From assembly GCA_964576195.1 (NCBI GenBank), contig CAZNUD010000002.1, forward strand, positions 4,117 to 68,116: DNA of 64,000 nt, written 5' to 3'. The stretch is from an uncultured Oscillospiraceae bacterium (GTDB lineage: Bacteria > Bacillota > Clostridia > Oscillospirales > Oscillospiraceae). The translations under genes and the position numbers were made by a program. Shown here piece after piece: positions 44,255 to 64,000 of the stretch. Position 1 is the stretch's first letter. Each line of letters starts with the position of its first letter. The notes beneath the pieces were generated by a model. That model saw nothing but the letters and a program-made list of their open reading frames with translations, searched no databases and was not told the origin of the DNA.

Positions 44255-44764
44255 ATGGACAATATCATTCTTATCGGTATGCCCGGCACCGGAAAAAGTA
44301 CAGTGGGTGTGGTGTTGGCTAAACTTTTGGGCTTTAACTTTATAGATACTGATATACTTATTTCTAATAAGGACAAGGCCTCACGCCCACTGTGGCAGAT
44401 AATTGCCCAGGATGGATATGAGAGCTTTCTCAGAGCCGAGGGGCAGGTAGGTAAGGAGCTTTGCTGTTCGCACTCGGTTGTGGCAACCGGTGGGAGTATG
44501 GTTTATTCCGAAAATGCCATGGAAAACCTGGCAAGGCTTGGACTTATTGTCTGGCTGGACACGCCGGTTTCCGTAATTGAGGAGCGAATCGGGGGAGGGC
44601 TTCAGGAAAGAGGAGTTGCAACGCCCAGGAAAATGACCGTGGCTGAGATATATGCGGAGAGGGAGCAGCTTTACAGACGCTGGGCGCAGCTTAGCTTTCC
44701 TTGCGTGGGGAACACGGAGCAAGTGGTTACAAAATTACGTGATCAATTGTCGAATTATAAATAA
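44255..44764 (+). CDS. aroK: shikimate kinase
   Basis: 169 aa, IILIGMPGTGKSTVG P-loop, ATGGS motif. Confidence 0.88.
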   Translation: MDNIILIGMPGTGKSTVGVVLAKLLGFNFIDTDILISNKDKASRPLWQIIAQDGYESFLRAEGQVGKELCCSHSVVATGGSMVYSENAMENLARLGLIVWLDTPVSVIEERIGGGLQERGVATPRKMTVAEIYAEREQLYRRWAQLSFPCVGNTEQVVTKLRDQLSNYK

Positions 44765-44868: not shown

Positions 44869-45795
44869 ATGGAAATCCGAGATTTGCGTTACTTCTGCTT
44901 AACCGCTGAAATGGAGCATGTTTCCAAGACTGCGGAGAAGCTTGGCATTGCTCAACCCTATCTTACTAAAATCATTGGGCAGATTGAGGATGAAATAGGC
45001 ACTCAGCTCTTCGACAAGGTTGGGCGGCAAATCAGGCTAAACCACTATGGCGAGGTATTTTATTTGCAGTCTAAAAAGGTTCTGGCCTGCATAGAAAATC
45101 TTTATACCGAGATGGACTATGTTCTGGAAAAGCAAAGTCGCACAATCACCCTCATGAGCAATACTCAGGCCTACACCTCCGGCATGGTTGTGCAGTTTCA
45201 GAAGAAAAATGCCAGCTACGGTTTGAAAGTAATTTACGGTACATACAAAGAAATGATACGCGCGGTTGTTACCGGCGAAGTGGACTTTGCCCTGTGCGAC
45301 CCCCCTCTGGACGAGGACGATGTTACCAGAACTGAAATTGTTTTTAATGACACGGCCTATGTCCTGCTTCCGCCGGGACACCCCTTCTTGAATCGCAAGG
45401 CTCTCAGATTTGAGGATCTGCAAAATGAGCGGCTTATAACCTCCCCCAAGGGCGGTGCTATGCGCTGGCATGTAGATTCTGTTTTTGAGAGACGAAACGC
45501 CCACCCTCACATTGTCTGCGAGACCCACGACCTTAACCTGATCATTCAGGCTGTTGAAAGTGGGATGGGCTATGCCTTTATCTCTTATTCCGTGCTATAC
45601 AGCCATCCGGAAATTCGCAGTCGCTGCGTTGCTTTAGACAGTATTGACCGCTTCGGAAAAATCGGACTGAGCTTCAACCGTCTTGCCATTGGAAACCGTA
45701 ACTGTGACGACTTTTACAAGTTTACAGTGGAATATTTCGAGGATTTGCAAGCAGTCATCGACGAGAGCTTTGATAACGATTACAAGCACAATTGA
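44869..45795 (+). CDS. LysR family transcriptional regulator
   Basis: MEIRDLRYF..HVSKTAEKLGIAQPYLTKIIGQIE HTH plus a LysR substrate-binding domain. Confidence 0.9.
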   Translation: MEIRDLRYFCLTAEMEHVSKTAEKLGIAQPYLTKIIGQIEDEIGTQLFDKVGRQIRLNHYGEVFYLQSKKVLACIENLYTEMDYVLEKQSRTITLMSNTQAYTSGMVVQFQKKNASYGLKVIYGTYKEMIRAVVTGEVDFALCDPPLDEDDVTRTEIVFNDTAYVLLPPGHPFLNRKALRFEDLQNERLITSPKGGAMRWHVDSVFERRNAHPHIVCETHDLNLIIQAVESGMGYAFISYSVLYSHPEIRSRCVALDSIDRFGKIGLSFNRLAIGNRNCDDFYKFTVEYFEDLQAVIDESFDNDYKHN

Positions 45796-45878
45796 CCGGC
45801 TGATATGCAGTTTTGAACAGTTTCATCCCTTTGGGGCAGCTTATTTGTTGTTTGCGTCGCCGAAGTTTCGGCAAGGAC

Positions 45879-45907
45879 TTGACATATTTCTAAATGGGGC
45901 TTATTAT
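45879..45907 (+). promoter_or_regulatory. sigma-A promoter driving the T-box leader
   Basis: TTGACA (45879-45884), 17 nt spacer, TATTAT (45902-45907). Confidence 0.7.
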
Positions 45908-45928
45908 TATACTAAATTAAAACGTAAA

Positions 45929-46206
45929 AGCAATGATGAGGAAGAAGTAAGCAATAACAAACCGCACAGAAAGTTGCCGGCTGATGAGAGGCGCACGGAG
46001 AGTTTTTGCCGAATACATCCTTTAGCTTCACACCAAACGGCGTTGTTGCCCAGTAGGCTGTGACGGGAGCGCCCGTTAAAGCGTCGGCTCATTGCACGGT
46101 GGAATCCACTGGAAGTGAGCGCTGAGGCCTCCCGTGTAAGCGGGCGGCAAACCAAGGTGGTACCACGATTATTTCGTCCTTCGGATTTTTCCGAAGGACG
46201 TTTTTT
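45929..46206 (+). promoter_or_regulatory. T-box riboswitch leader, tyrosine (UAC) specifier
   Basis: Stem I with GA-motif AAUGAUGAG and AGUA (45946-45949). Specifier loop GAA-UAC-A (46011-46017). CCGUUA F-box (46073-46078). Antiterminator AAGG-UGGUACC-ACGA-uuauu-UCGU-CCUU (46154-46181) overlaps the terminator 5' arm. Confidence 0.85.
46175..46206 (+). terminator. T-box attenuator terminator
   Basis: CGTCCTTCGG-attttt-CCGAAGGACG followed by TTTTTT. RBS AAAGGAGA and the ATG lie 7-23 nt downstream. Confidence 0.9.
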
Positions 46207-46228
46207 ATATTCAAAGGAGAAGAGCACT

Positions 46229-47908
46229 ATGCCTATCACAAATTTGCTGGAGCGAAACGCGAGCCACTTTCCCTATGAAACGGCTCTGGTTGAGATTAAC
46301 CCTCAGCATGAGCCGGAGGAGGCCACGCCCAGCTCTTGGAAGGAATTCAGCCTCGTTGAAATGAACTACAAGGAAGATACCTATCGCAGGGAACTGTCGT
46401 GGATGGATTTTGACTGCCGTGCCAACCGCTTTGCAAATTTACTTTTGGCAAACGGCGTAAAAAAGGGTGATAAGGTGGGAATTCTTCTGATGAACTGCCT
46501 TGAATGGCTTCCCATATATTTCGGTGTTTTAAAGGCGGGAGCCTTGGCGGTGCCGCTTAACTACCGCTACACCTCAGAAGAAATAAAATACTGCCTTGAT
46601 TTAGCTGATTGCACATTGCTTGTGTTAGGGAATGAGTTTACAGATCGGGTGGCGGCGGTTAAGGACCAGATGCCGACTGTACGGAAGCTTTATTACGTAG
46701 GCGGAGACTGCCCTGATTGGGCGGAGAGTTATTATCAGTTTATGTACTACTGCTCCAGCCGAAAGCCCAAGATCGAAATAAGCGACGAGGACTATGCGGC
46801 GATCTACTTTTCCTCCGGCACGACAGGCTTTCCCAAGGCCATTTTGCATAAGCACCGCAGTCTATCACACTCGGCCGAGTGTGAGCAAAACCATCATGGG
46901 CAGCGACACGGCGACTGCTTTCTATGCATGCCTCCGCTTTACCATACCGGCGCAAAAATGCACTGGTTTGGAAGCCTCTACTCCTGTAGCAAAGCTGTTT
47001 TGCTGCGCGGCATAAGTCCAAAATGGATCATGGAGACAGCGGCTCAGGAGAAGGCAACAAATGTTTGGCTTTTGGTACCCTGGGCGCAGGACATTTTAGA
47101 TGCGCTGGATAGAGGTGACATCAGCCTTTCAGATTATGACCTATCGTCTTGGCGTCTGATGCATATCGGTGCGCAACCGGTGCCGCCGGCCCTTATAAAC
47201 CGCTGGAAAGCATATTTCCCAAACCACCAATATGATACCAATTACGGCCTGTCTGAGTCCATAGGTCCTGGCTGCGTGCATTTGGGAGTCGAAAATATAT
47301 ACAAAGTTGGCGCAATCGGCATCGCCGGCTACGGCTGGGAGACCATGGTGCTAGACCCGGACAAAAAGCCTCTGCCTGACGGTGAAGTGGGCGAGCTTGC
47401 TATACGCGGTCCCGGTGTTATGACCTGCTACTACAAAAACGAGGAAGCCACAAAAGAATCCCTTTCGCCTGATGGCTGGCTTTGGACAGGTGACATGGCC
47501 CGGGTGGATGCGGACGGCTTTATCTGGCTGGTGGATCGGAAAAAGGACGTTATCATCACCGGCGGTGAAAACCTTTATCCCGTGCAGATTGAGGACTTTT
47601 TGCGCAGCAACGTGAAAATCAAGGATGTGGCAGTTATTGGCCGCCCCCACGAAAGACTAGGCGAAATTGCATGCGCAATTATCGAACTAAAGCCCGGTGA
47701 GAATGCAACAGTTGCGGAAATTTTAGAATTCTGCTCCGCCCTGCCCCGCTATAAACGCCCCCGGGAGATTATCTTTGACACCGTACCCAGAAACCCCACA
47801 GGTAAAATCGAAAAGCCAAAGCTCCGGGAAAAGTACGGCGCTGTAAACATAGTATCCTTGCAGACGGAAGCCTCGGTAAGCCAAAACTGCTCAGTGGCGG
47901 TGAAATAA
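46229..47908 (+). CDS. ANL-superfamily adenylate-forming enzyme (acyl-CoA synthetase-like), substrate unknown
   Basis: 559 aa from ATG 46229. YFSSGTTGFPKA (A3), YGLSE, GDMARVDADGFIWLVDRKKD, GGENLYP, PRNPTGKIEK (A10). Confidence 0.85.
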   Translation: MPITNLLERNASHFPYETALVEINPQHEPEEATPSSWKEFSLVEMNYKEDTYRRELSWMDFDCRANRFANLLLANGVKKGDKVGILLMNCLEWLPIYFGVLKAGALAVPLNYRYTSEEIKYCLDLADCTLLVLGNEFTDRVAAVKDQMPTVRKLYYVGGDCPDWAESYYQFMYYCSSRKPKIEISDEDYAAIYFSSGTTGFPKAILHKHRSLSHSAECEQNHHGQRHGDCFLCMPPLYHTGAKMHWFGSLYSCSKAVLLRGISPKWIMETAAQEKATNVWLLVPWAQDILDALDRGDISLSDYDLSSWRLMHIGAQPVPPALINRWKAYFPNHQYDTNYGLSESIGPGCVHLGVENIYKVGAIGIAGYGWETMVLDPDKKPLPDGEVGELAIRGPGVMTCYYKNEEATKESLSPDGWLWTGDMARVDADGFIWLVDRKKDVIITGGENLYPVQIEDFLRSNVKIKDVAVIGRPHERLGEIACAIIELKPGENATVAEILEFCSALPRYKRPREIIFDTVPRNPTGKIEKPKLREKYGAVNIVSLQTEASVSQNCSVAVK

Positions 47909-47917
47909 TATAAATAA

Positions 47918-47943
47918 GGGCCTCATCGCTTAAGATGAAGCCC
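47918..47943. terminator. hairpin between convergent ligase and eamA genes
   Basis: GGGCCTCATC-gcttaa-GATGAAGCCC (one mismatch), followed on the plus strand by TCATTTATATTT. Confidence 0.5.
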
Positions 47944-47988
47944 TCATTTATATTTGAAGCAAACTAAACAAAATCCTAGTTTTGTATA

Positions 47989-48879
47989 CTACTTCCCTGC
48001 CTTATGGGGAATTTGTTCTTTCTTCTGACTTAGCTCGTTTATTAATGTAAATGCCAGAATCATTACTCCGCCAAGTAGCTGTATGCTTGTGATCGTCTCC
48101 TGAAGGAATGCAACGGAAACAATTACCGCAACAAGTGGATCAATGTAACTAAAAATGGCTATTTTTTGGCCGCTTAACTTCCCTACCGCGGAAAAATATA
48201 GACAGTATGCAAAACCCGTATGAACAACTCCCAGAGTTAGCAGGCTTATAAGCCCCCCTCCCCTGATTTCGGCTATGTGAATACCCCCTGTCAGCGGTAC
48301 ATATACCAACAGCACCACAATAACCCCTACAAACTGACAAATGGTCTTATCAATGCCGCTTGCAGCCTTGACACGCTTGTTCATAATTATTATGAATGCG
48401 TAAAGACAGGCCGCCCCAAGCCCCAGCAGAATTCCGAGAAGTTCCTTATCGCTGCCGCCGCCACGGGCGCCGATTATCATAACAAGTCCCGCCGTTGCAA
48501 ATGCAAAATAGATACACTGCTTATAAGTAATCCGTTCTTTAAATATAATCGGGCAAAGCACCATTATCAGCACCGGGCAGAAATAATAACATAGGGTAGC
48601 CACCGATACACTGGTATAATTATAAGCCTCGAAAAGTAGCACCCAGTTAAAACCCATCGCTCCTCCTGAAATAAGGAGAGGCAACAGATCGCCCCCAATG
48701 GATTTAAAAGGAAGCCTTTCCCGCCGTGCGAGCTTATATAGCAGCAGAACAGTTAATCCTATCACCGCCCGCCATAGTGCAATTTCTCCGGAGGAAAGGG
48801 CGATACCTTTTACAAGCATACTGATGGTGCCGAAGATCACCATCGCTGATATTATACTCAGCAAACCTTTACTGACCAA
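47989..48879 (-). CDS. EamA/DMT family transporter
   Basis: 296 aa, 10 predicted TM helices in two EamA repeats. The TTG start overlaps the ilvE stop by 22 nt. Confidence 0.8.
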   Translation of the reverse strand: MVSKGLLSIISAMVIFGTISMLVKGIALSSGEIALWRAVIGLTVLLLYKLARRERLPFKSIGGDLLPLLISGGAMGFNWVLLFEAYNYTSVSVATLCYYFCPVLIMVLCPIIFKERITYKQCIYFAFATAGLVMIIGARGGGSDKELLGILLGLGAACLYAFIIIMNKRVKAASGIDKTICQFVGVIVVLLVYVPLTGGIHIAEIRGGGLISLLTLGVVHTGFAYCLYFSAVGKLSGQKIAIFSYIDPLVAVIVSVAFLQETITSIQLLGGVMILAFTLINELSQKKEQIPHKAGK

Positions 48880-55214: not shown

Positions 55215-55296
55215 AGCGTCGTGTGTAATTTTTTAGCGCCTTTCGGTGCTATTTTACATTTTTATAAACATGAATTCAACAAGAAAGGGCATTATT

Positions 55297-56508
55297 ATGA
55301 AAATTTTGGTCATAAACGCCGGTAGTTCCTCCTTAAAGTATCAGCTAATTGACATGGAGGATAAGAGTATCCAAGCAAAGGGTCTATGTGAGCGTATAGG
55401 TATTGACGGTCACATCAAACATACTCCTCTGGTTTCCGACAAGCCTGTTTTTGAAGCAGAAATACCTATGCCTACCCACGCTGAGGCTATTGAGGTTGTC
55501 CTAGAAAAGCTTGTATCTCCAGAATACGGCGTTGTTAAGTCCATGAGTGAAATCGCTGCTGTTGGTCACCGTGTGCTCCATGGCGGAAAAGAGTTTGCAA
55601 AGTCCGTATATATCGACAACGCCTGCATGGCAGCTATCGAGCGCTGTATCCCCCTCGGGCCCCTCCACAACCCCGCAAACATTATGGGTATCGAGGCCTG
55701 CCGCAAGGTTATGGGAGACAAGGTTCCCATGGTTGCCGTTTTCGACACCGCCTTTCATATGACAATGCCCCCAAAGGCCTATACCTATGCGATCCCCTAT
55801 GAATACACAGAAAAGGACAACCTCCGCCGTTACGGCTTCCACGGCACCAGCCACCGCTTCGTATCCGAGCGGGCACTTGAAATTATGGGCATTATGGACG
55901 ATCCCAACAGCAAGGTTATTGTCTGTCATTTAGGCAACGGTTCTTCCATTTCCGCTGTTAAGGGCGGCAAGTGCGTTGATACTTCTATGGGACTCTCCCC
56001 TCTTGTGGGTCTTCCCATGGGCACCCGCTGCGGTGACATTGACCCAACCGTCTTGCAGTTTATTATGAACAAGTACGGTATGAGCATGAACGAGATCATG
56101 ACCACTATGAATAAGAAGTCCGGCGTTCTGGGCATTTCGGGTGTTTCCAGCGACTTTCGCGACCTAGGCAAGTCCGCCAATGAAGGAAACGAACGCTCTC
56201 AGCTTGCTCTTGACATGTTCCATTACTGGGTCGCCAAGGTTGTCGGCTCCTATGTGGCCGCTATGAACGGCGTTGACGGTATTGCTTTTACCGGCGGTAT
56301 TGGCGAAAACGGGTGTGACTCACGGGCCGCTATATGCGAATATCTTACCTATCTGGGTGTCAAAATAGACGCTGATGCCAACAAGATTCGCTCCAAGACT
56401 ACAACTATCAGCACTGCTGAGAGCAAGGTTAAGGTAATGGTCATCCCCACTAACGAGGAACTGGTTATAGCCAGAGATACCAAGTCCATAGTTGAGGCCA
56501 TGAAGTAA
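55297..56508 (+). CDS. ackA: acetate kinase
   Basis: MKILVINAGSSSLKYQL, GFHGTSH, 403 aa from ATG 55297. Confidence 0.95.
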   Translation: MKILVINAGSSSLKYQLIDMEDKSIQAKGLCERIGIDGHIKHTPLVSDKPVFEAEIPMPTHAEAIEVVLEKLVSPEYGVVKSMSEIAAVGHRVLHGGKEFAKSVYIDNACMAAIERCIPLGPLHNPANIMGIEACRKVMGDKVPMVAVFDTAFHMTMPPKAYTYAIPYEYTEKDNLRRYGFHGTSHRFVSERALEIMGIMDDPNSKVIVCHLGNGSSISAVKGGKCVDTSMGLSPLVGLPMGTRCGDIDPTVLQFIMNKYGMSMNEIMTTMNKKSGVLGISGVSSDFRDLGKSANEGNERSQLALDMFHYWVAKVVGSYVAAMNGVDGIAFTGGIGENGCDSRAAICEYLTYLGVKIDADANKIRSKTTTISTAESKVKVMVIPTNEELVIARDTKSIVEAMK

Positions 56509-57180: not shown

Positions 57181-58188
57181 TTATGCTCTTGCCTTTTTAA
57201 TTTCCGCTATTAGAACCGGAATTATCTCAAACAAGTCACCAACTACGGCATAATCCGCAACGTTAAAGATGGGAGAGGTCTCATCCTTATTGATGGCAAT
57301 GATGGTCTTAGAACTGCTCATGCCCGCGACGTGCTGAATAGCGCCGGAAATTCCGCAAGCAATATAAATCTTGGGTCCGACTGTCTTGCCGGTTTGACCG
57401 ACTTGATGGGAGTGGTCAATCCAACCTGCGTCAACAGCAGCGCGGGAAGCACCCACAACGCCACCTAGTAAGTCTGCAAGCTCCTTAATAGGCTTGAAGC
57501 CATCAGGGCCTCCAACACCACGGCCGCCGGAAACGATAATTTCTGCGCCTTCAAGATCAACCAGCTCACCGGCAACTTCCTTAAGAGATTCAAGAAGCTC
57601 AGTGCGTATTCTCTCAGGTGCTACATGGAAATCTTCCTTTATGACTTCAGCCTTGTGGCCTATGTCAGCCTCAGCCTTCTTAAACACGCCGGGGCGAACA
57701 GTACCGATCTGAGGGCGGTTGTCCGGGCACATGATGGTTGCCATGAGGTTGCCGCCGAAGGCGGGACGAGTCCAAGCAACATTGCCGGTTTCCTCGTCAA
57801 TAGCAAGATTTGTGCAGTCAGCGGTAAGGCCTGTTTTCAGGCGGCAAGAAAGACGGGGACCAAGGTCACGGCCATTGTTTGTTGCGCCGATGAGTATGCT
57901 GGTGGGTCCGTATTTCTCTACCAAATAGTGCATTGCGTCTGTATAGGCATCGGTGGTATAGTGCTCATATTCCTTACCTTCCACAACGATGATTCTATCA
58001 GCGCCGTGTTCGGTTGCAGACTTAACAGCATCATCTACACCGTTGCCGACAATAACACCAACGAGGCTTCCGCCCTGCTTGTCAGCAAGGTCACGGCCCG
58101 GGGTCAGAAGCTCAAGACCGACATTTTTTGCCGTTCCGTTTTCATTGGTTTCGATAAATACCCATAAATCTTTAGTTTTTGCTTCCAT
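57181..58188 (-). CDS. etfA: electron transfer flavoprotein subunit alpha
   Basis: 335 aa, C-terminal FAD-binding region IYIACGISGAIQH. Confidence 0.92.
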   Translation of the reverse strand: MEAKTKDLWVFIETNENGTAKNVGLELLTPGRDLADKQGGSLVGVIVGNGVDDAVKSATEHGADRIIVVEGKEYEHYTTDAYTDAMHYLVEKYGPTSILIGATNNGRDLGPRLSCRLKTGLTADCTNLAIDEETGNVAWTRPAFGGNLMATIMCPDNRPQIGTVRPGVFKKAEADIGHKAEVIKEDFHVAPERIRTELLESLKEVAGELVDLEGAEIIVSGGRGVGGPDGFKPIKELADLLGGVVGASRAAVDAGWIDHSHQVGQTGKTVGPKIYIACGISGAIQHVAGMSSSKTIIAINKDETSPIFNVADYAVVGDLFEIIPVLIAEIKKARA

Positions 58189-58203
58189 TTTTACGTTACC
58201 CCC

Positions 58204-59010
58204 TTAGATAATCTTATCGGCAGTAAGAGCCACAAATAGCTTCTTTGCCGAGTCGGCGTTGGTTTCTTCCTGAATCCTCACGCCGCCGGTTTTAACTTCC
58301 GGTGTGAAGGTCTTTTTAACCTTTGTGGGGGAACCCTTAAGGCCGATTCTGGTGGAATCAATCATGGATTCAAGATCTGCAAAGGCAATTGTGGGAATTT
58401 CCTTCCGATTTGCTGCCATTTTGGACTTGATAGTGGGATAGCGGGGGTCAAAGCTGGGCTTTGTAACAGTAACGAGACAGGGCATCTTAACGCCGATGAT
58501 CTCAAAGCCGTCATCTACTTCCTTCTTGACCTTTACCATGTTGCCATCAACCTCGGACTCAACAGCGTATGTAACCTGAGGACGATCAAGGTGCTCTGCC
58601 ATTTCAGGGCCAACCTGTGCGGTGTCGCCATCAATAGCCTGCTTGCCGCAGAAAATGATGTCAAACTTACCCTGAGTTTTCTCAAGCTTTTTTACTGCTG
58701 TTGAAAGGATATAGGAGGTTGCAAGGGTATCAGAGCCGCCGAATTCACGGCCGCTGACCAGATAGGCTTCATCGCCGCCAACGGCGAGGCATTCCTTAAG
58801 GGCGTTCTGAGCCTGAGGAGGTCCCATGCAGACAAGGGTGATTTTAGCTGATGGGTCCTTGTCCTTAATCCTAGCGGCAAGCTCAAGAGCATATGCGTCA
58901 AAGGGATTGACGATGCTGGGAACGCCATCACGGATAAGGGTCTTCTTGATAGGGTCTATCTTAATCTCAGTGGTATCAGGTACCTGTTTAATACAAACAA
59001 GTATGTTCAT
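58204..59010 (-). CDS. etfB: electron transfer flavoprotein subunit beta
   Basis: MNILVCIKQVPD N-terminus. ATG 59010 after GAAGGAA. The longer track ORF is rejected. Confidence 0.92.
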   Translation of the reverse strand: MNILVCIKQVPDTTEIKIDPIKKTLIRDGVPSIVNPFDAYALELAARIKDKDPSAKITLVCMGPPQAQNALKECLAVGGDEAYLVSGREFGGSDTLATSYILSTAVKKLEKTQGKFDIIFCGKQAIDGDTAQVGPEMAEHLDRPQVTYAVESEVDGNMVKVKKEVDDGFEIIGVKMPCLVTVTKPSFDPRYPTIKSKMAANRKEIPTIAFADLESMIDSTRIGLKGSPTKVKKTFTPEVKTGGVRIQEETNADSAKKLFVALTADKII

Positions 59011-59131
59011 GATAGGATTCCTTCTTTCCATAAATTTGCACTTATAGGACATTTTTGTAGGCAATGGGCGGTGTGCTTCCGCCATTTTTGCATAAAAATG
59101 CCTAAAATTTAAATATCTTCGCACTTTTTAC

Positions 59132-59161
59132 ATTATACGTCAACAAAAGTGCGCATGTCAA
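59132..59161 (-). promoter_or_regulatory. internal sigma-A promoter upstream of etfB
   Basis: Minus strand reads TTGACA-18 nt-TATAAT. It is embedded in the inverted repeat GCACTTTT..AAAAGTGC (59121-59152). Confidence 0.55.
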
Positions 59162-59261
59162 CCAATATATATGTGGGACTCTGTGCCGAAAAGCCCAAAC
59201 ACAAGTTAATCTAAATTGATTAAAGCTATAAGAATATTTATATTATTGTCTCCTGTGTTTA

Positions 59262-59305
59262 ACGCGGCCCGCGTGAACCAAAGCTCACGCGGGCCGTGAT
59301 TTTGC
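59262..59305 (-). terminator. GC-rich hairpin after the acyl-CoA dehydrogenase gene
   Basis: CACGGCCCGCGTGA-gctttggt-TCACGCGGGCCG(C)G, about 40 nt after the stop at 59344. The U-tract on the minus strand is poor (TTAAAC). Confidence 0.45.
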
Positions 59306-59343
59306 ATACTGTTGAGCAGAAATGTTATGCTGTTCTATAAGCC

Positions 59344-60504
59344 TTACATGAGGCCGGAAGCCTTAAGCAGGGCCTTTAATACGACCATGCGCTGAACCTC
59401 GTTGGTGCCCTCAAAGAGAGTACCGATTTTTGCGTTGCGCAGGATGATCTCCACGGGGTACTCCTTGGAGTATCCGTAGCCACCGTGAATCTGGATAGCT
59501 TCGTTTGCAACTTCAAAGCAAGACTCTGAAGAAAAAGCCTTTGCAGCGGAAGACAGGGCACTGTCTATAACGCCCTCGTCGATCATCGCTGCAACCTTAT
59601 AAACAAGGGCGCGGGCTGCTTCATATTTGATCTCCATGTCGGCAATCTTGAATTGAATGGCCTGATTCTGAAGAATGGGCTGACCGAAGGTAATGCGCTG
59701 AGTGGAATAATCCATGCACTTGTCTATGCAGCTTTTCATAGCGCCGCAGCATGCTGCGCCAACACCTGCGGGACGGGTACGGTCAAAGGTCATCATAGCG
59801 ATCTTAAAGCCTTCGCCCTGCTTGCCAACCATGTTAGACTTGGGAATGCGAACATTTTCAAATATAACCTCGGTTGTGTTGGAAAGGCGGATGCCCATCT
59901 TGTTTTCCTCAGCGCCGATGCTTATGCCGGGGGTCTTGCGGTCTACATAGAAGCAGGACATAGAGCGTGTTCCGTTGCCTGGGTCGGTAACTGCAAATAC
60001 GGTATAGATGCTGGCATGTTCGCCGTTGGTGATGAATGACTTTGTGCCGTTAATGACCCACTCTTCACCGTCGAGGACTGCATTGGTGCGGCCTGCAGCA
60101 ACGTCGGAACCTGCATCTGCTTCCGTAAGAGCAAATGCAGCCAGTCCGCCGTCAACTATGTACTTGCCGTATTCCTCTTTCTGTTCCTGTGTACCAAAAA
60201 GCTGAAGGGGCATAAAAGCGAGACCACAAGCGCCGATAACGGTCGCAAAGCCGATATCCTGATATGCCAGCTCTTCGAGAACTAGAGAGTTGGTAAACTC
60301 GCCCATTCCACCGCCGCCGATAGACTCGGGCAGAGTGATGCTTGTTAGGCCCATTTCTGCAGCCTTTTTGACAACATCCATGGGGGTTTCGCTCTTCTCA
60401 TCGCACTCTTTGATCCTTTCCCAAGGAAGCTCCTTGCGGATAAAATCACGGGTCATCTGCTGAATGTCAATCTGGTCTTGAGTTAAGCCGTATTCTTCTT
60501 TCAT
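59344..60504 (-). CDS. acyl-CoA dehydrogenase (butyryl-CoA dehydrogenase-like)
   Basis: 386 aa from ATG 60504 after GAAGGAGA. ACAD motifs (LTEADAGSD, QIHGGYGY, catalytic Glu in FEGTNEV). Partnered with etfBA. Confidence 0.88.
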   Translation of the reverse strand: MKEEYGLTQDQIDIQQMTRDFIRKELPWERIKECDEKSETPMDVVKKAAEMGLTSITLPESIGGGGMGEFTNSLVLEELAYQDIGFATVIGACGLAFMPLQLFGTQEQKEEYGKYIVDGGLAAFALTEADAGSDVAAGRTNAVLDGEEWVINGTKSFITNGEHASIYTVFAVTDPGNGTRSMSCFYVDRKTPGISIGAEENKMGIRLSNTTEVIFENVRIPKSNMVGKQGEGFKIAMMTFDRTRPAGVGAACCGAMKSCIDKCMDYSTQRITFGQPILQNQAIQFKIADMEIKYEAARALVYKVAAMIDEGVIDSALSSAAKAFSSESCFEVANEAIQIHGGYGYSKEYPVEIILRNAKIGTLFEGTNEVQRMVVLKALLKASGLM

Positions 60505-60688
60505 TGTCTCGTCTCCTTCAAAATTTGCTTCCGGGCAATTCTCTCCCTGGCACCTGCCACCTACCCGGCAAAAATATGGAAAGTACTCGAAAAAGTCCGC
60601 TAGACGCAATTCATAATAATAAGCCAATCATGCTTTTTGAATTAAACTGCAGGAACACTGTTAAATTCTTGACATTTCCATTAGGGTC

Positions 60689-62708: not shown

Positions 62709-63137
62709 TTAGAATTTAACGTCATCGGCCGTCAGTAGCTTAAAGCCCTTTTCCTCTAGGCATTTAATGGCCTTAACCTGATCGTCACATTTAAGGATTA
62801 TCGTGGCACCGTCACCCACAGGAGAAACGAATCCGTAACTGTATTCTACCATTATGTCGTTATCGGTAAGAGCAGTCAGGGCAGCGTGAAAAGTGCCGGG
62901 CTTGTCGTCAGCTTCAAGGGCGATAACATCGGTTTCCTTAACTGTCATCCCCGCTTCGCGCAGAGCGTTAAGGGCTGTTTTGCGCTTATCAACAATTAGG
63001 CGCACTACACCGAAATCTGTTGTGTCGGCAATAGTGATTGCGCGGAGGTTTACCCCGGCCCGATAAAGCACTCCGGTAATATCCCGGATTGCGCCCTTGC
63101 GGTTCTCCGCAAAAACGGATATTTGCTTTAAAAGCAT
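62709..63137 (-). CDS. ACT domain-containing protein
   Basis: 142 aa, two ACT-like halves (ISVFAENRKGAIRDITGVL..). Usual partner downstream of paaK in anaerobes. Confidence 0.8.
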   Translation of the reverse strand: MLLKQISVFAENRKGAIRDITGVLYRAGVNLRAITIADTTDFGVVRLIVDKRKTALNALREAGMTVKETDVIALEADDKPGTFHAALTALTDNDIMVEYSYGFVSPVGDGATIILKCDDQVKAIKCLEEKGFKLLTADDVKF

Positions 63138-63148
63138 AGAACTCCTCC

Positions 63149-64000
63149 TTAATAATTCATCTTCGTGCGTTTGTCGATTACACGTTTTGCCTTGCCCTCG
63201 AAGCGCTCTATGCTCTTGGGCTCAACCAGCTTTATCTTAGCCGAAATGCCAAGAACGGAATGGATGGCATCGGTAACCCGCTTTGACATGGCTTCAAGCT
63301 TTCGTACCTCGTCGGTAAAGGTGTCCTCTGTAAGCTCCACCAAAACGGTTAGCTTATCCAGATTTCCCTCCCGTTCAACTATCATCTGGAAGAAGGGCGC
63401 GATCCCCTCCATATTCATAAGCACGGATTCTATCTGCGACGGGAACACATTGACGCCGCGTATGATAAGCATATCGTCGGTTCTTCCCGCAGGCTTAACC
63501 ATGCGAACAAAGCTTCTGCCGCATTCACACTCACCGGGAATTATTATTCCCACATCCCGGGTGCGGTAGCGGATAAGAGGCAGAGCCTCCTTGGTCATGC
63601 AGGTAAAGACTATTTCACCCTCGCTACCCGGGGGTAAAAGCTCACCGGTCTCAGGGTCGATTATTTCTAAAAAGAAATGGTCTTCATTAACATGCAGTCC
63701 GTTTTGACACTCACATTCGTAGGCAACTCCTGGGCCGATAATCTCAGATAGTCCGTAAATATCGTAGGCCTTCAAATTAAGTAACTGCTCAATTTCCCGG
63801 CGCATGCTGTCTGTCCATGGCTCAGCACCGAAGAAACCGGCTTTCAGGTGTATATCGTCCTTGGAAATACCGTTTTGTTGCATGAATTCTGCTATCGTTA
63901 GAGCATAGGAAGGTGTTGCCAAAATAAAGCTCGGCTTAAAGTCCTGCAAAATCGTAACCTGACGCCGGGTGTTGCCGGTAGAAGCGGGGATGGTTGCACA
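63149..64000 (-). CDS. paaK: phenylacetate-CoA ligase, C-terminal ~280 aa (5' end beyond the window)
   Basis: The frame stays open to position 64000 (..TIPASTGNTRRQVTILQDFKPSFILATPSYAL). YGLSEIIGPG, RYRTRD, GVNVFPSQIE, KAKRVIDKR. Confidence 0.88.
   Translation of the reverse strand, partial: CATIPASTGNTRRQVTILQDFKPSFILATPSYALTIAEFMQQNGISKDDIHLKAGFFGAEPWTDSMRREIEQLLNLKAYDIYGLSEIIGPGVAYECECQNGLHVNEDHFFLEIIDPETGELLPPGSEGEIVFTCMTKEALPLIRYRTRDVGIIIPGECECGRSFVRMVKPAGRTDDMLIIRGVNVFPSQIESVLMNMEGIAPFFQMIVEREGNLDKLTVLVELTEDTFTDEVRKLEAMSKRVTDAIHSVLGISAKIKLVEPKSIERFEGKAKRVIDKRTKMNY

Follow-up and report, generated by a model that had tools for sequence, protein, structure and literature searches.

The founding tyrosine T-box is the leader of Bacillus subtilis tyrS. 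Its Stem I carries a K-turn and the specifier loop, and is followed by a Stem II and IIA/B region with an F-box, a Stem III, and an antiterminator with a UGGU bulge that competes with a terminator. The specifier is UAC and the regulated gene encodes tyrosyl-tRNA synthetase. The UGGU bulge fits a tRNA with the discriminator base A73, which is given for bacterial tRNA-Tyr by Grundy et al. (1994) as cited in PMC7778990. In the Bacillus cereus group, tyrosine T-boxes precede both the operon for tyrosine biosynthesis and the gene for phenylalanine-4-hydroxylase (Wels et al., 2008, PMC2494555). The known targets of tyrosine T-boxes thereby include a salvage-type enzyme, and in all cases tested so far the T-box specifier has agreed with what the regulated gene does (PMC2494555). 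A biosynthetic role has also been proposed, in Bacteroides and methanogens, for an indolepyruvate:ferredoxin oxidoreductase (IOR) that is colocalised with an AMP-forming, PaaK-like arylacetate-CoA ligase (PMC13285125).

The locus described here lies in a 64 kb stretch of DNA from an uncultured Oscillospiraceae bacterium, the whole of which is referred to as the window. Its leader shares all of the above elements with that of B. subtilis tyrS, including the UAC specifier and the UGGU bulge, although the distal Stem I motifs are slightly off consensus and the gene downstream encodes an ANL acyl-CoA ligase rather than a tyrosyl-tRNA synthetase. As in the B. cereus group, the T-box is proposed to induce, in response to uncharged tRNA-Tyr, an enzyme that derives tyrosine from a different aromatic compound; however, the suggested route runs from an aryl acid through a CoA ester to a 2-oxoacid, instead of by phenylalanine hydroxylation or the shikimate route, and the taxa are Oscillospiraceae and other Clostridia. 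In relatives the ligase adjoins the IOR genes iorA and iorB, and occupies the position that a PaaK paralogue takes elsewhere. The proposed chemistry, from arylacetate to arylacetyl-CoA to arylpyruvate, is likewise that of the iorAB and PaaK-like systems; in contrast to those systems, for which no T-box control has been reported, the ligase of the window is T-box-linked and stands apart from any iorAB.

Anatomy of the leader

All features of the leader lie on the forward strand. A sigma-70-type promoter, TTGACA-17-TATTAT (45879..45907; -35 at 45879-45884, a 17-nt spacer and -10 at 45902-45907), matches 11 of the 12 consensus positions and is the top promoter-like site within 45600-48100. The -35 element and its flank are kept in L001, the closest orthologous locus, which has the same LysR, T-box and ligase layout. 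The leader itself (45924..46184) is composed of Stem I, Stem II, a IIA/B region with the F-box, Stem III and the antiterminator, and is the sole Rfam match in the 64 kb window. It matches RF00230 over the full model (1-219) with 94.1 bits (E 2.5e-19), only 1.1 bits over the gathering score of 93. The closest leaders (L001 and L009) score under this threshold and orthologous leaders elsewhere reach 100-133 bits. An nhmmer profile built from the orthologous leaders matches that of the window with an E-value of 1.3e-46.

The base of Stem I (45932..45949) carries the GA/K-turn motif AAUGAUGAG (45932-40) and AGUA (45946-49), which are aligned to the UGA...AGUA of the model. The 3' side of the specifier loop reads GAA-UAC-A (46011..46017), and in the Rfam alignment the tyrosine codon UAC (46014-46016) takes up the specifier-loop positions of RF00230. 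High posterior probabilities are obtained for AUGA...AGUA, for GAA-UAC-A and for the distal motifs AGAAA / CUGAUGAGA, although the latter depart from consensus at 3 positions (AGAAA against AGAGA; CUGAUGAGA against UUGGUGAAA). Stem I is complete: the K-turn, the purine 3' of the specifier codon and the distal AG bulge and loop motifs are all present. The F-box CCGUUA (46073..46078) in the Stem IIA/B region is aligned to the CCGUUA of the model.

The antiterminator (46154..46181) is formed by AAGG, the bulge UGGUACC (46158-64), the hairpin ACGA-UUAUU-UCGU and CCUU. Folded alone (35 nt, 46150-46184) it reaches just -5.8 kcal/mol. The intrinsic terminator (46175..46206) consists of an 11-bp stem (46175-46200), in which 7 of the 11 pairs are G-C, followed by T6 (46201-06), and folds at -22.3 kcal/mol with a z-score of -4.36. 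Positions 46175-81 are common to the 3' strand of the antiterminator and the 5' arm of the terminator, so the two helices are mutually exclusive, as a T-box with a UGGN-bulge antiterminator requires. Comparison with L001 reveals the change A46165G / U46177C, which preserves a pair of the antiterminator, and U46177C is in turn offset by A46198G in the terminator stem. Both alternative helices are thus preserved by a triple compensatory change. A ribosome-binding site, AAAGGAGA (46214..46221), is read directly 7 nt 5' of the ATG.

The preliminary description had recognized a T-box with a tyrosine specifier from the letters alone, and its identity, its UAC codon, its promoter, Stem I motifs, F-box and antiterminator are all upheld where they had been placed. 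The terminator was correctly located together with its T6, but its stem had been read as 10 bp; similarly, the ribosome-binding site and the start of the 559-residue ligase were correct apart from the ATG, which lies at 46229 and not 46230. The element is a canonical transcriptional T-box with a UAC (Tyr) specifier, preceded by a strong promoter and followed by a monocistronic ligase gene. The suggested terminator/antiterminator switch with the ANL ligase as the regulated gene is supported, and the tyrosine T-box almost certainly controls this gene. No tRNA gene was found in the window and no tRNA-Tyr in the scanned related loci.

The regulated gene

The regulated gene (46229..47908, forward strand) encodes a 559-residue ANL (class I adenylate-forming) acyl-CoA ligase with matches to Pfam AMP-binding (PF00501, 239 bits) and AMP-binding_C (PF13193, 42 bits), both over their cut-offs. 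The ANL core motifs SSGTTGFPK, YGLSE, TGD...DGF...DRKKD and PTGKIEK are read directly in the protein, which places it in the ANL family. The ligase falls under every NCBIfam cut-off: the best match, PRK06187, gives 393.7 bits against 476, and its scores fall well short for all 25 listed models. By these cut-offs it does not belong to any of the named equivalogs, such as FadD, MenE, FadD3 and malonyl-CoA synthase.

Nor is the protein of the PaaK type. PaaK proteins (TIGR02155) are ~435 residues long and end in AMP-binding_C_2, whereas this family is ~550 residues long with AMP-binding_C; PaaK models are absent from the family matches of the ligase, and the genuine PaaK-like proteins in the clusters described below form a separate family (C4). 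The closest characterized relatives are fatty-acid, feruloyl, malonyl and 4-coumarate CoA ligases (E 1e-73 to 1e-47 by sequence). The closest solved structures, Mycobacterium tuberculosis FadD5 (8r2q) and FadD13 (3r44), have the ANL fold and the same core motifs for adenylation and thioesterification, but are distant in sequence (E 1e-73 and 1e-68, respectively) and act on fatty acids, unconnected with the sensing of amino acids. Relatives of the ligase occur in >596 species loci, the best 80 of which share at least 65% identity with it, and homologues are named long-chain acyl-CoA synthetase in the source annotations. The family is tightly conserved and annotated only generically; no assayed member was found in the searchable literature.

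Conservation of the leader among orthologues

The best 80 of the >596 species-level GTDB loci, plus metagenome loci, were taken as the orthologue sample. Of the 80 species loci, 22 have a homologous tyrosine T-box 5' of the orthologous ligase gene or of a symporter gene paired with it, as do 4 metagenome loci. The specifier is UAC in all 26 leaders, and none has a Phe or Trp specifier. This dispels the possibility, which the preliminary description had allowed for, that orthologues of the ligase never carry a T-box. The specifier is retained even though mean column identity across the 26 leaders is just 63% and gene order is variable. The GA and AGTA motifs are invariant in the alignment, double changes are seen at each of the 16 predicted Stem I pairs, and the helix closing the specifier loop has compensatory changes at 4 of 4 pairs. 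The loop of one leader, that of L086, is atypical (GAAUUACU).

The ligase is the sole gene common to all of the T-box units, and is a new, conserved member of the T-box regulon. About 70% of the orthologous loci lack the T-box and many lack iorAB nearby. Some further candidates were set aside: the T-box of L011 serves asnA and has AAC (Asn) as its specifier, and the T-box-like motifs of L065 and L074 are part of coding sequence. A literature search for T-boxes together with CoA ligase, indolepyruvate or phenylacetate, and for 4-hydroxyphenylacetyl-CoA ligase, returned nothing relevant.

Gene clusters in relatives

In relatives the ligase belongs to a recurrent cluster in the order sodium:solute symporter, ligase, iorA, iorB, PaaK-like ligase and ACT protein. 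Across the 80 genome loci the SSF symporter is found 25 times, IorA 24, IorB 18 and the PaaK-like ligase 13. The assignments of IorA (TIGR03336, 736 bits against a cut-off of 651) and IorB (286 against 230) are clear of their thresholds. The ligase gene adjoins iorA in 24/80 loci, and in the window neither IorA nor IorB is matched over the 64 kb. In several loci (L008, L025, L034, L036 and L037) a single tyrosine T-box precedes the entire ligase-iorAB-paaK operon. In L034 and L037 this operon also contains an Amidohydro_2 protein, a family that includes hydroxyaromatic decarboxylases.

An independent sample of 56 loci was anchored on IorA. The gene directly 5' of iorA is this ligase in 13 of them and a PaaK paralogue in 14, and never both. 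A T-box is present in 4 of the 13 loci with this ligase as opposed to 0 of the 43 others. In relatives the ligase therefore sits in the iorAB cluster, in the slot that a second PaaK paralogue fills in other genomes, which supports the idea of an arylacetate-type CoA ligase. The preliminary description had guessed at 4-hydroxyphenylacetate or a related aryl acid; the iorAB, PaaK-like, ACT and symporter genes of relatives favour this guess, with the substrate itself still a matter of inference.

Outside the Firmicutes gene contexts are mostly uninformative. The exceptions are the metagenome-assembled loci L024 (Smithella) and L027 (delta-proteobacterial), in which an ACT protein lies 3' of the ligase as it does after PaaK, and L064, in which a class I/II aminotransferase lies 5' of it. 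The downstream genes of T-box units without IOR (L015, L033, L038 and L060) are an ABC transporter, a methylase, mraZ and mraW, and were dismissed as unrelated.

Genomic neighbourhood of the ligase gene

The genes flanking the ligase had been taken to suggest an aromatic theme, and this does not hold as evidence. The SKI-family kinase upstream, described as aroK, has a better fit to the SKI-type homoserine kinase model (147.7 bits) than to AroL/AroK, with no cut-off passed; the convergent aminotransferase downstream is the branched-chain enzyme IlvE, above cut-off; and the LysR regulator, which lies directly upstream of the T-box unit both in the window and in L001, is GltC-like. A palindrome, GCCGAA-gt-TTCGGC (45859..45872, forward strand), precedes the -35 element and forms a hairpin of -8.1 kcal/mol. 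It had been considered as a site of LysR control or as the lysR terminator. Both roles were rejected, since the palindrome is degenerate in L001 (GCCGATATTTTAGC) and lacks a U tail, and a conserved regulatory function is improbable.

Two genes on the reverse strand at the end of the window lie outside the T-box unit and provide context. A PaaK-like ligase, partial from 63167 to the window end (64000), has TIGR02155 PaaK as its best family and is 57% identical to the cluster PaaK by tblastn; the accompanying ACT-pair protein (62709-63137) is 39% identical to the cluster ACT protein. These were the only matches when the window was searched by tblastn with the cluster proteins. The paaK-ACT pair noted earlier some 15 kb from the ligase is therefore real, but on an extra 11 kb contig of the same organism (L081) the gene upstream of it encodes DAHP synthase and not iorAB, and no T-box was found there. 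Neither the 64 kb window nor this 11 kb contig contains iorAB, the symporter or an aromatic aminotransferase, and the pathway partners are thus unseen in this genome.

Proposed mechanism and function

From the anatomy of the leader, and from established T-box biology, the following switch is inferred. When tyrosine is plentiful, charged tRNA-Tyr would be unable to stabilize the weak antiterminator, the 11-bp terminator would form and transcription would stop at 46206. Uncharged tRNA-Tyr(GUA) would instead pair through its anticodon with the UAC in Stem I, and its free ACCA-3' end with the UGGU of the T-box bulge. The antiterminator would then be held and the ligase transcribed.

The ligase itself probably serves tyrosine supply. 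It most probably converts an imported aromatic acid, of which 4-hydroxyphenylacetate is the best guess, to its CoA thioester; IOR would carboxylate this thioester reductively to 4-hydroxyphenylpyruvate, and an aminotransferase would yield tyrosine. The unit would then be a starvation-induced step of tyrosine salvage or alternative biosynthesis. As an overall explanation, a tyrosine T-box acting on an aryl-acid ligase for tyrosine salvage is given a probability of roughly 0.6. Counting against it are the absence of iorAB, the symporter and an aromatic aminotransferase from the 64 kb window and the 11 kb contig, the roughly 70% of orthologous loci without a T-box, the many loci with no iorAB in the vicinity, and the sequence relationship to ligases for fatty acids, malonate, ferulate and 4-coumarate. 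That the substrate is specifically 4-hydroxyphenylacetate, coupled to IOR, is only slightly favoured. The chances are even that this ~550-residue ANL family represents the missing 4-hydroxyphenylacetate-CoA ligase of arylacetate reductive carboxylation, wired by T-boxes to the charging of tRNA-Tyr in some Clostridia.

Alternative explanations

A broader arylacetate or aromatic-acid CoA ligase could feed IOR or another route, with tRNA-Tyr a mere proxy for a shortage of aromatic amino acids. Phenylacetate, indoleacetate, 4-hydroxyphenylpropionate, 4-coumarate and 4-hydroxybenzoate would then be candidate substrates. Such breadth is consistent with the range of IOR enzymes, which take phenyl-, hydroxyphenyl- and indolepyruvate (PMC13285125), with the placing of entire ligase-iorAB-paaK operons under one tyrosine T-box, with feruloyl- and 4-coumarate-CoA ligases among the PDB relatives, and with the Amidohydro_2 protein in two of the operons. 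It is nonetheless rather unlikely, as all 26 leaders specify Tyr and none Phe or Trp, and the T-box tracks this ligase and not iorAB or paaK. Most clusters moreover already have a PaaK-like ligase, and the presence of another enzyme beside it points to a different substrate. A further alternative is an ordinary acyl-CoA ligase for fatty acids or medium-chain acids, whose T-box has no meaning for tyrosine supply and which clusters with iorAB by chance or through general 2-oxoacid metabolism. This would agree with the FadD-type best matches in NCBIfam and the PDB (PRK06187, FadD5, FadD13) and with the annotation of homologues as long-chain acyl-CoA synthetases. None of the FadD-type models reaches its cut-off, however, and the retention of the Tyr specifier over 26 diverged leaders and several gene orders, the exchange of this ligase with the PaaK paralogue in the position 5' of iorA, and the match of specifier to gene function in all tested T-boxes (PMC2494555) make this explanation improbable.

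A role in tyrosine degradation, in which IOR oxidizes 4-hydroxyphenylpyruvate and the ligase works in reverse or recycles the acid, recalls the formation of arylacetates from aromatic amino acids by IOR and related enzymes in gut bacteria (PMC13285125). It is very hard to reconcile with a T-box, which is induced by scarcity of its amino acid, whereas a catabolic gene would call for the reverse; AMP-forming ligases also favour thioester synthesis (PMC13285125), and oxidative pathways employ a phosphotransacylase and kinase or ADP-forming ligases. The slim Rfam margin, the off-consensus distal Stem I motifs and the LysR gene directly upstream might be read as signs of a decayed T-box, with the ligase expressed constitutively or under LysR control. 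Against this stand the intact T-box modules, the strong terminator and the changes relative to L001, which are compensatory for both helices, as well as the poor conservation of the suggested LysR site, and a non-functional remnant is most improbable. Tyrosine salvage through an aryl-acid ligase accordingly remains the preferred reading.

Implications

T-box specifiers reliably report the amino acid that is served, and the invariant Tyr specifier therefore assigns a role to a widespread family with generic annotation; the same evidence ties this family to iorAB. To our knowledge the reductive carboxylation of arylacetates to aromatic amino acids has been described in rumen and gut anaerobes at the physiological level only. 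The T-box-linked ligase offers a genetic handle on this old physiology, and bears on the consumption by gut bacteria, and not just the production, of 4-hydroxyphenylacetate, the precursor of p-cresol. It would extend the T-box regulon past synthetases, canonical biosynthesis and transporters to a salvage route made up of a CoA ligase and a ferredoxin oxidoreductase. If the preferred reading is correct, this would be the first T-box over an amino-acid synthesis that is based on a 2-oxoacid:ferredoxin oxidoreductase and draws on a scavenged fermentation product, in a ligase family present in >596 species of anaerobes from gut, rumen and sediment.

The T-box leader

The single Rfam match in the window (4227 families, both strands, entire length) is a T-box, RF00230, at 45924–46184 on the forward strand, aligned to model positions 1–219 with an E value of 2.5e-19. 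With 94.1 bits it is barely over the threshold, the gathering score being 93. The 3′ side of the specifier loop reads GAA-UAC-A (46011–46017, forward), in which the tyrosine codon UAC (46014–46016) occupies the specifier position; next come the purine customary there and the helix that closes the loop. Posterior probabilities are high for the alignment of the GA/K-turn, both AGUA motifs, the F-box CCGUUA (46073–46078, forward) and the T-box sequence GGUGGUACCACG. The distal motifs of Stem I are a few positions off consensus. Deviations common to the window (45956–45995) and L001, the closest orthologous ligase locus, are AGAAA for AGAGA and UGAUGAGA for UGGUGAAA; these lower the Rfam scores to about the threshold. 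Despite clear homology, the leaders of L001 and a further orthologous locus, L009, score under it. As a riboswitch the element is canonical and its family well known.

A promoter, TTGACA-17-TATTAT (45879–45907, forward), agrees with the consensus at 11 of 12 positions. The terminator, also recognized by consensus scan, consists of 11 bp (stem 46175–46200, forward) and then T6. It folds at −22.3 kcal/mol (z −4.4), a value equalled by none of 200 shuffles, whereas the antiterminator by itself reaches only −5.8 kcal/mol. As the terminator is far more stable than the lone antiterminator, the default state should be OFF, as in a transcriptional T-box. A ribosome-binding site (46214–46221, forward) lies upstream of the ATG at 46229 (forward), from which the 559-residue ligase is translated. 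The preliminary description had placed a T-box with a UAC specifier, promoter, terminator and ribosome-binding site within 45859–47908, and all are present; its start coordinate for the ligase was off by one base.

The ligase and its family

The ligase contains the Pfam domains AMP-binding (239 bits) and AMP-binding_C, and the ANL core motifs are readable in its translation. It reaches no NCBIfam cut-off, the top model being the PRK06187 ‘long-chain-fatty-acid--CoA ligase’ subfamily (394 vs 476 bits). Among solved structures FadD5 and FadD13 are nearest, and feruloyl-, malonyl- and 4-coumarate-CoA ligases come next. The protein has a very large number of closely conserved homologues (68–90% identity for the best 120 database clusters), which carry only generic names in their source annotations. 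No assayed member was found in the literature searched.

With each GTDB species represented by a single genome, a scan gave more than 596 ligase loci, the best 80 of which are 65–83% identical. These come mainly from Oscillospiraceae, Ruminococcus (including R. flavefaciens isolates), Lachnospiraceae and Acutalibacteraceae, and also from MAGs of Smithella, Victivallales, Lentisphaeria and Chloroflexota. Identity to the Firmicutes protein is 65–67% across several phyla: L024, L027 and L072 (Smithella/delta-proteobacterial MAGs), L016, L021 and L049 (Lentisphaeria/Victivallales), L053 and L054. This set includes a complete 4.8-Mb Smithellaceae chromosome. Such identity across phyla speaks for either very strong constraint or horizontal transfer in the recent past. 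In L024 and L027 an ACT-pair gene lies directly 3′ of the ligase, as it does after PaaK (phenylacetate-CoA ligase type) elsewhere.

Conservation of the T-box with the ligase

Of the 80 loci, 22 have a homologous T-box by motif scan, Rfam or an nhmmer profile of the leaders themselves; about 70% have none. It lies immediately 5′ of the ligase in L001, L008, L009, L012, L013, L015, L022, L023, L025, L038, L046, L060 and L062, and 5′ of a symporter gene preceding the ligase in L003, L033, L034, L036, L037, L047, L055, L069 and L073. All 22 have the specifier loop (G/C)AA-UAC-(A/C). In a Stem I alignment of 26 leaders, four of them metagenomic, T-A-C is invariant (mean column identity 63%) and 16/16 predicted pairs vary on both sides, including the 4 that close the specifier loop. 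Most orthologous leaders have a strong terminator overlapping the antiterminator. Between the window and L001, U46177C in the shared strand goes with two compensating substitutions, A46165G on the antiterminator side and A46198G on the terminator side, the mark of a working switch. The sole other T-box in these loci, in L011, is not a ligase leader; its specifier is AAC and it belongs to asnA.

Gene neighbourhood

The ORFs of all 80 loci were clustered and annotated with Pfam and NCBIfam. A recurrent cluster around the ligase contains a sodium:solute symporter (SSF; 25 loci), IorA (24) and IorB (18) of indolepyruvate:ferredoxin oxidoreductase (IOR), a PaaK-like ligase (13) and occasionally an ACT-pair protein. 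IorA exceeds its cut-off (TIGR03336, 736 bits), as does IorB. The T-box units take four forms, namely the lone ligase, ligase with transporter (SSF or MFS), ligase with iorAB(-paaK), and all combined; the ligase is their sole constant member. In two Tyr T-box operons, L034 (3184–3999) and L037, an Amidohydro_2 (PF04909) protein, cluster C35, is encoded between symporter and ligase.

Metagenome contigs were scanned with an IorA alignment, and counts were made on the 56 loci in which the sequence 5′ of iorA extends for 1.8 kb or more. Immediately 5′ of iorA lies the ligase (13 loci), a PaaK paralogue (14), a symporter (3) or another gene (26). A T-box occurs in 4 of the 13 ligase-iorA loci, each time directly 5′ of the ligase and with a UAC specifier, versus 0 of the 43 others (hypergeometric probability about 0.002, calculated by hand from these counts). 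Rfam detected no T-box in 12 iorAB loci without the ligase. The T-box tracks the ligase, not IOR or PaaK. The leader of metagenome locus L086 (3044–3152) has an atypical specifier loop, GAAUUACU-CCCC instead of GAA-UAC-A, where the codon frame is less certain.

Ligase and PaaK paralogue are found together upstream of iorA in 0/56 loci, which indicates that both ligase types fill the same slot. An alternative cluster (L090, L093, L096, L098, L105, L112, L144 and others) consists of SSF symporter, PaaK paralogue, iorA, iorB, PaaK and ACT, its first PaaK being about 50% identical to the downstream one. Two arylacetate-type ligases per IOR cluster seem to be the rule, whichever family provides the first.

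Other genes of the window

Neither iorAB nor a symporter is present in the 64-kb window, and most of the aromatic context initially proposed for the ligase was not borne out. The supposed aroK, a 169-residue SKI-family kinase (44255–44764, forward), passes no cut-off and is closer to SKI-type homoserine kinase (NF040667, 147.7 bits, cut-off 197) than to AroL (93.5 bits), AroK or other shikimate kinase models. By NCBIfam the aminotransferase is IlvE and the LysR regulator GltC-like, and the palindrome at 45859–45872, suggested as a control element, is not conserved. The paaK-ACT pair does exist (62709–64000, reverse), but in L081 (2739–5387), a further contig of the same organism, it follows a DAHP synthase (PF00793), not iorAB. 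Upstream of this set Rfam detects neither a T-box nor any other element. DAHP synthase, the first shikimate-pathway enzyme, beside an arylacetate-type ligase is an unusual pairing. Acyl-CoA dehydrogenase with EtfB and EtfA (a butyryl-CoA dehydrogenase/ETF-type set) and acetate kinase (57184–60627, reverse; 55246–56508, forward) fit a butyrate-forming Oscillospiraceae-like anaerobe.

Discussion

From the anatomy of the leader we infer the standard T-box mechanism. Uncharged tRNA-Tyr would base-pair both to UAC and, by means of its ACCA end, to UGGU, stabilizing the antiterminator and allowing read-through into the ligase gene. Since a T-box induces its gene under shortage of the cognate amino acid, the ligase should contribute to tyrosine supply. 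The links to IOR and to a carboxylate-type transporter, together with the interchangeable positions of ligase and PaaK paralogue, suggest that an imported arylacetate is activated; reductive carboxylation of the arylacetyl thioester would then give the arylpyruvate, and transamination would follow. Given the Tyr-only specifier and the PaaK-like ligase usually in the same cluster, 4-hydroxyphenylacetate would be the most economical substrate. Older physiology, by Allison and others in the 1960s–70s, reportedly found arylacetates being built into aromatic amino acids by rumen bacteria.

A biosynthetic IOR working with an AMP-forming arylacetate ligase is plausible from the literature (PMC13285125). 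In all cases tested, the specifier of a T-box has agreed with the function of the gene it controls, and phenylalanine-4-hydroxylase, a salvage-type enzyme, is already among the targets of Tyr T-boxes (PMC2494555). The novelty lies in the gene family under control and in the function that the conserved Tyr specifier and IOR synteny suggest for it; earlier T-box regulon tables may list the gene. A generic ‘acyl-CoA ligase’ of hundreds of anaerobe species thereby becomes the subject of a specific, cheaply testable tyrosine-supply hypothesis.
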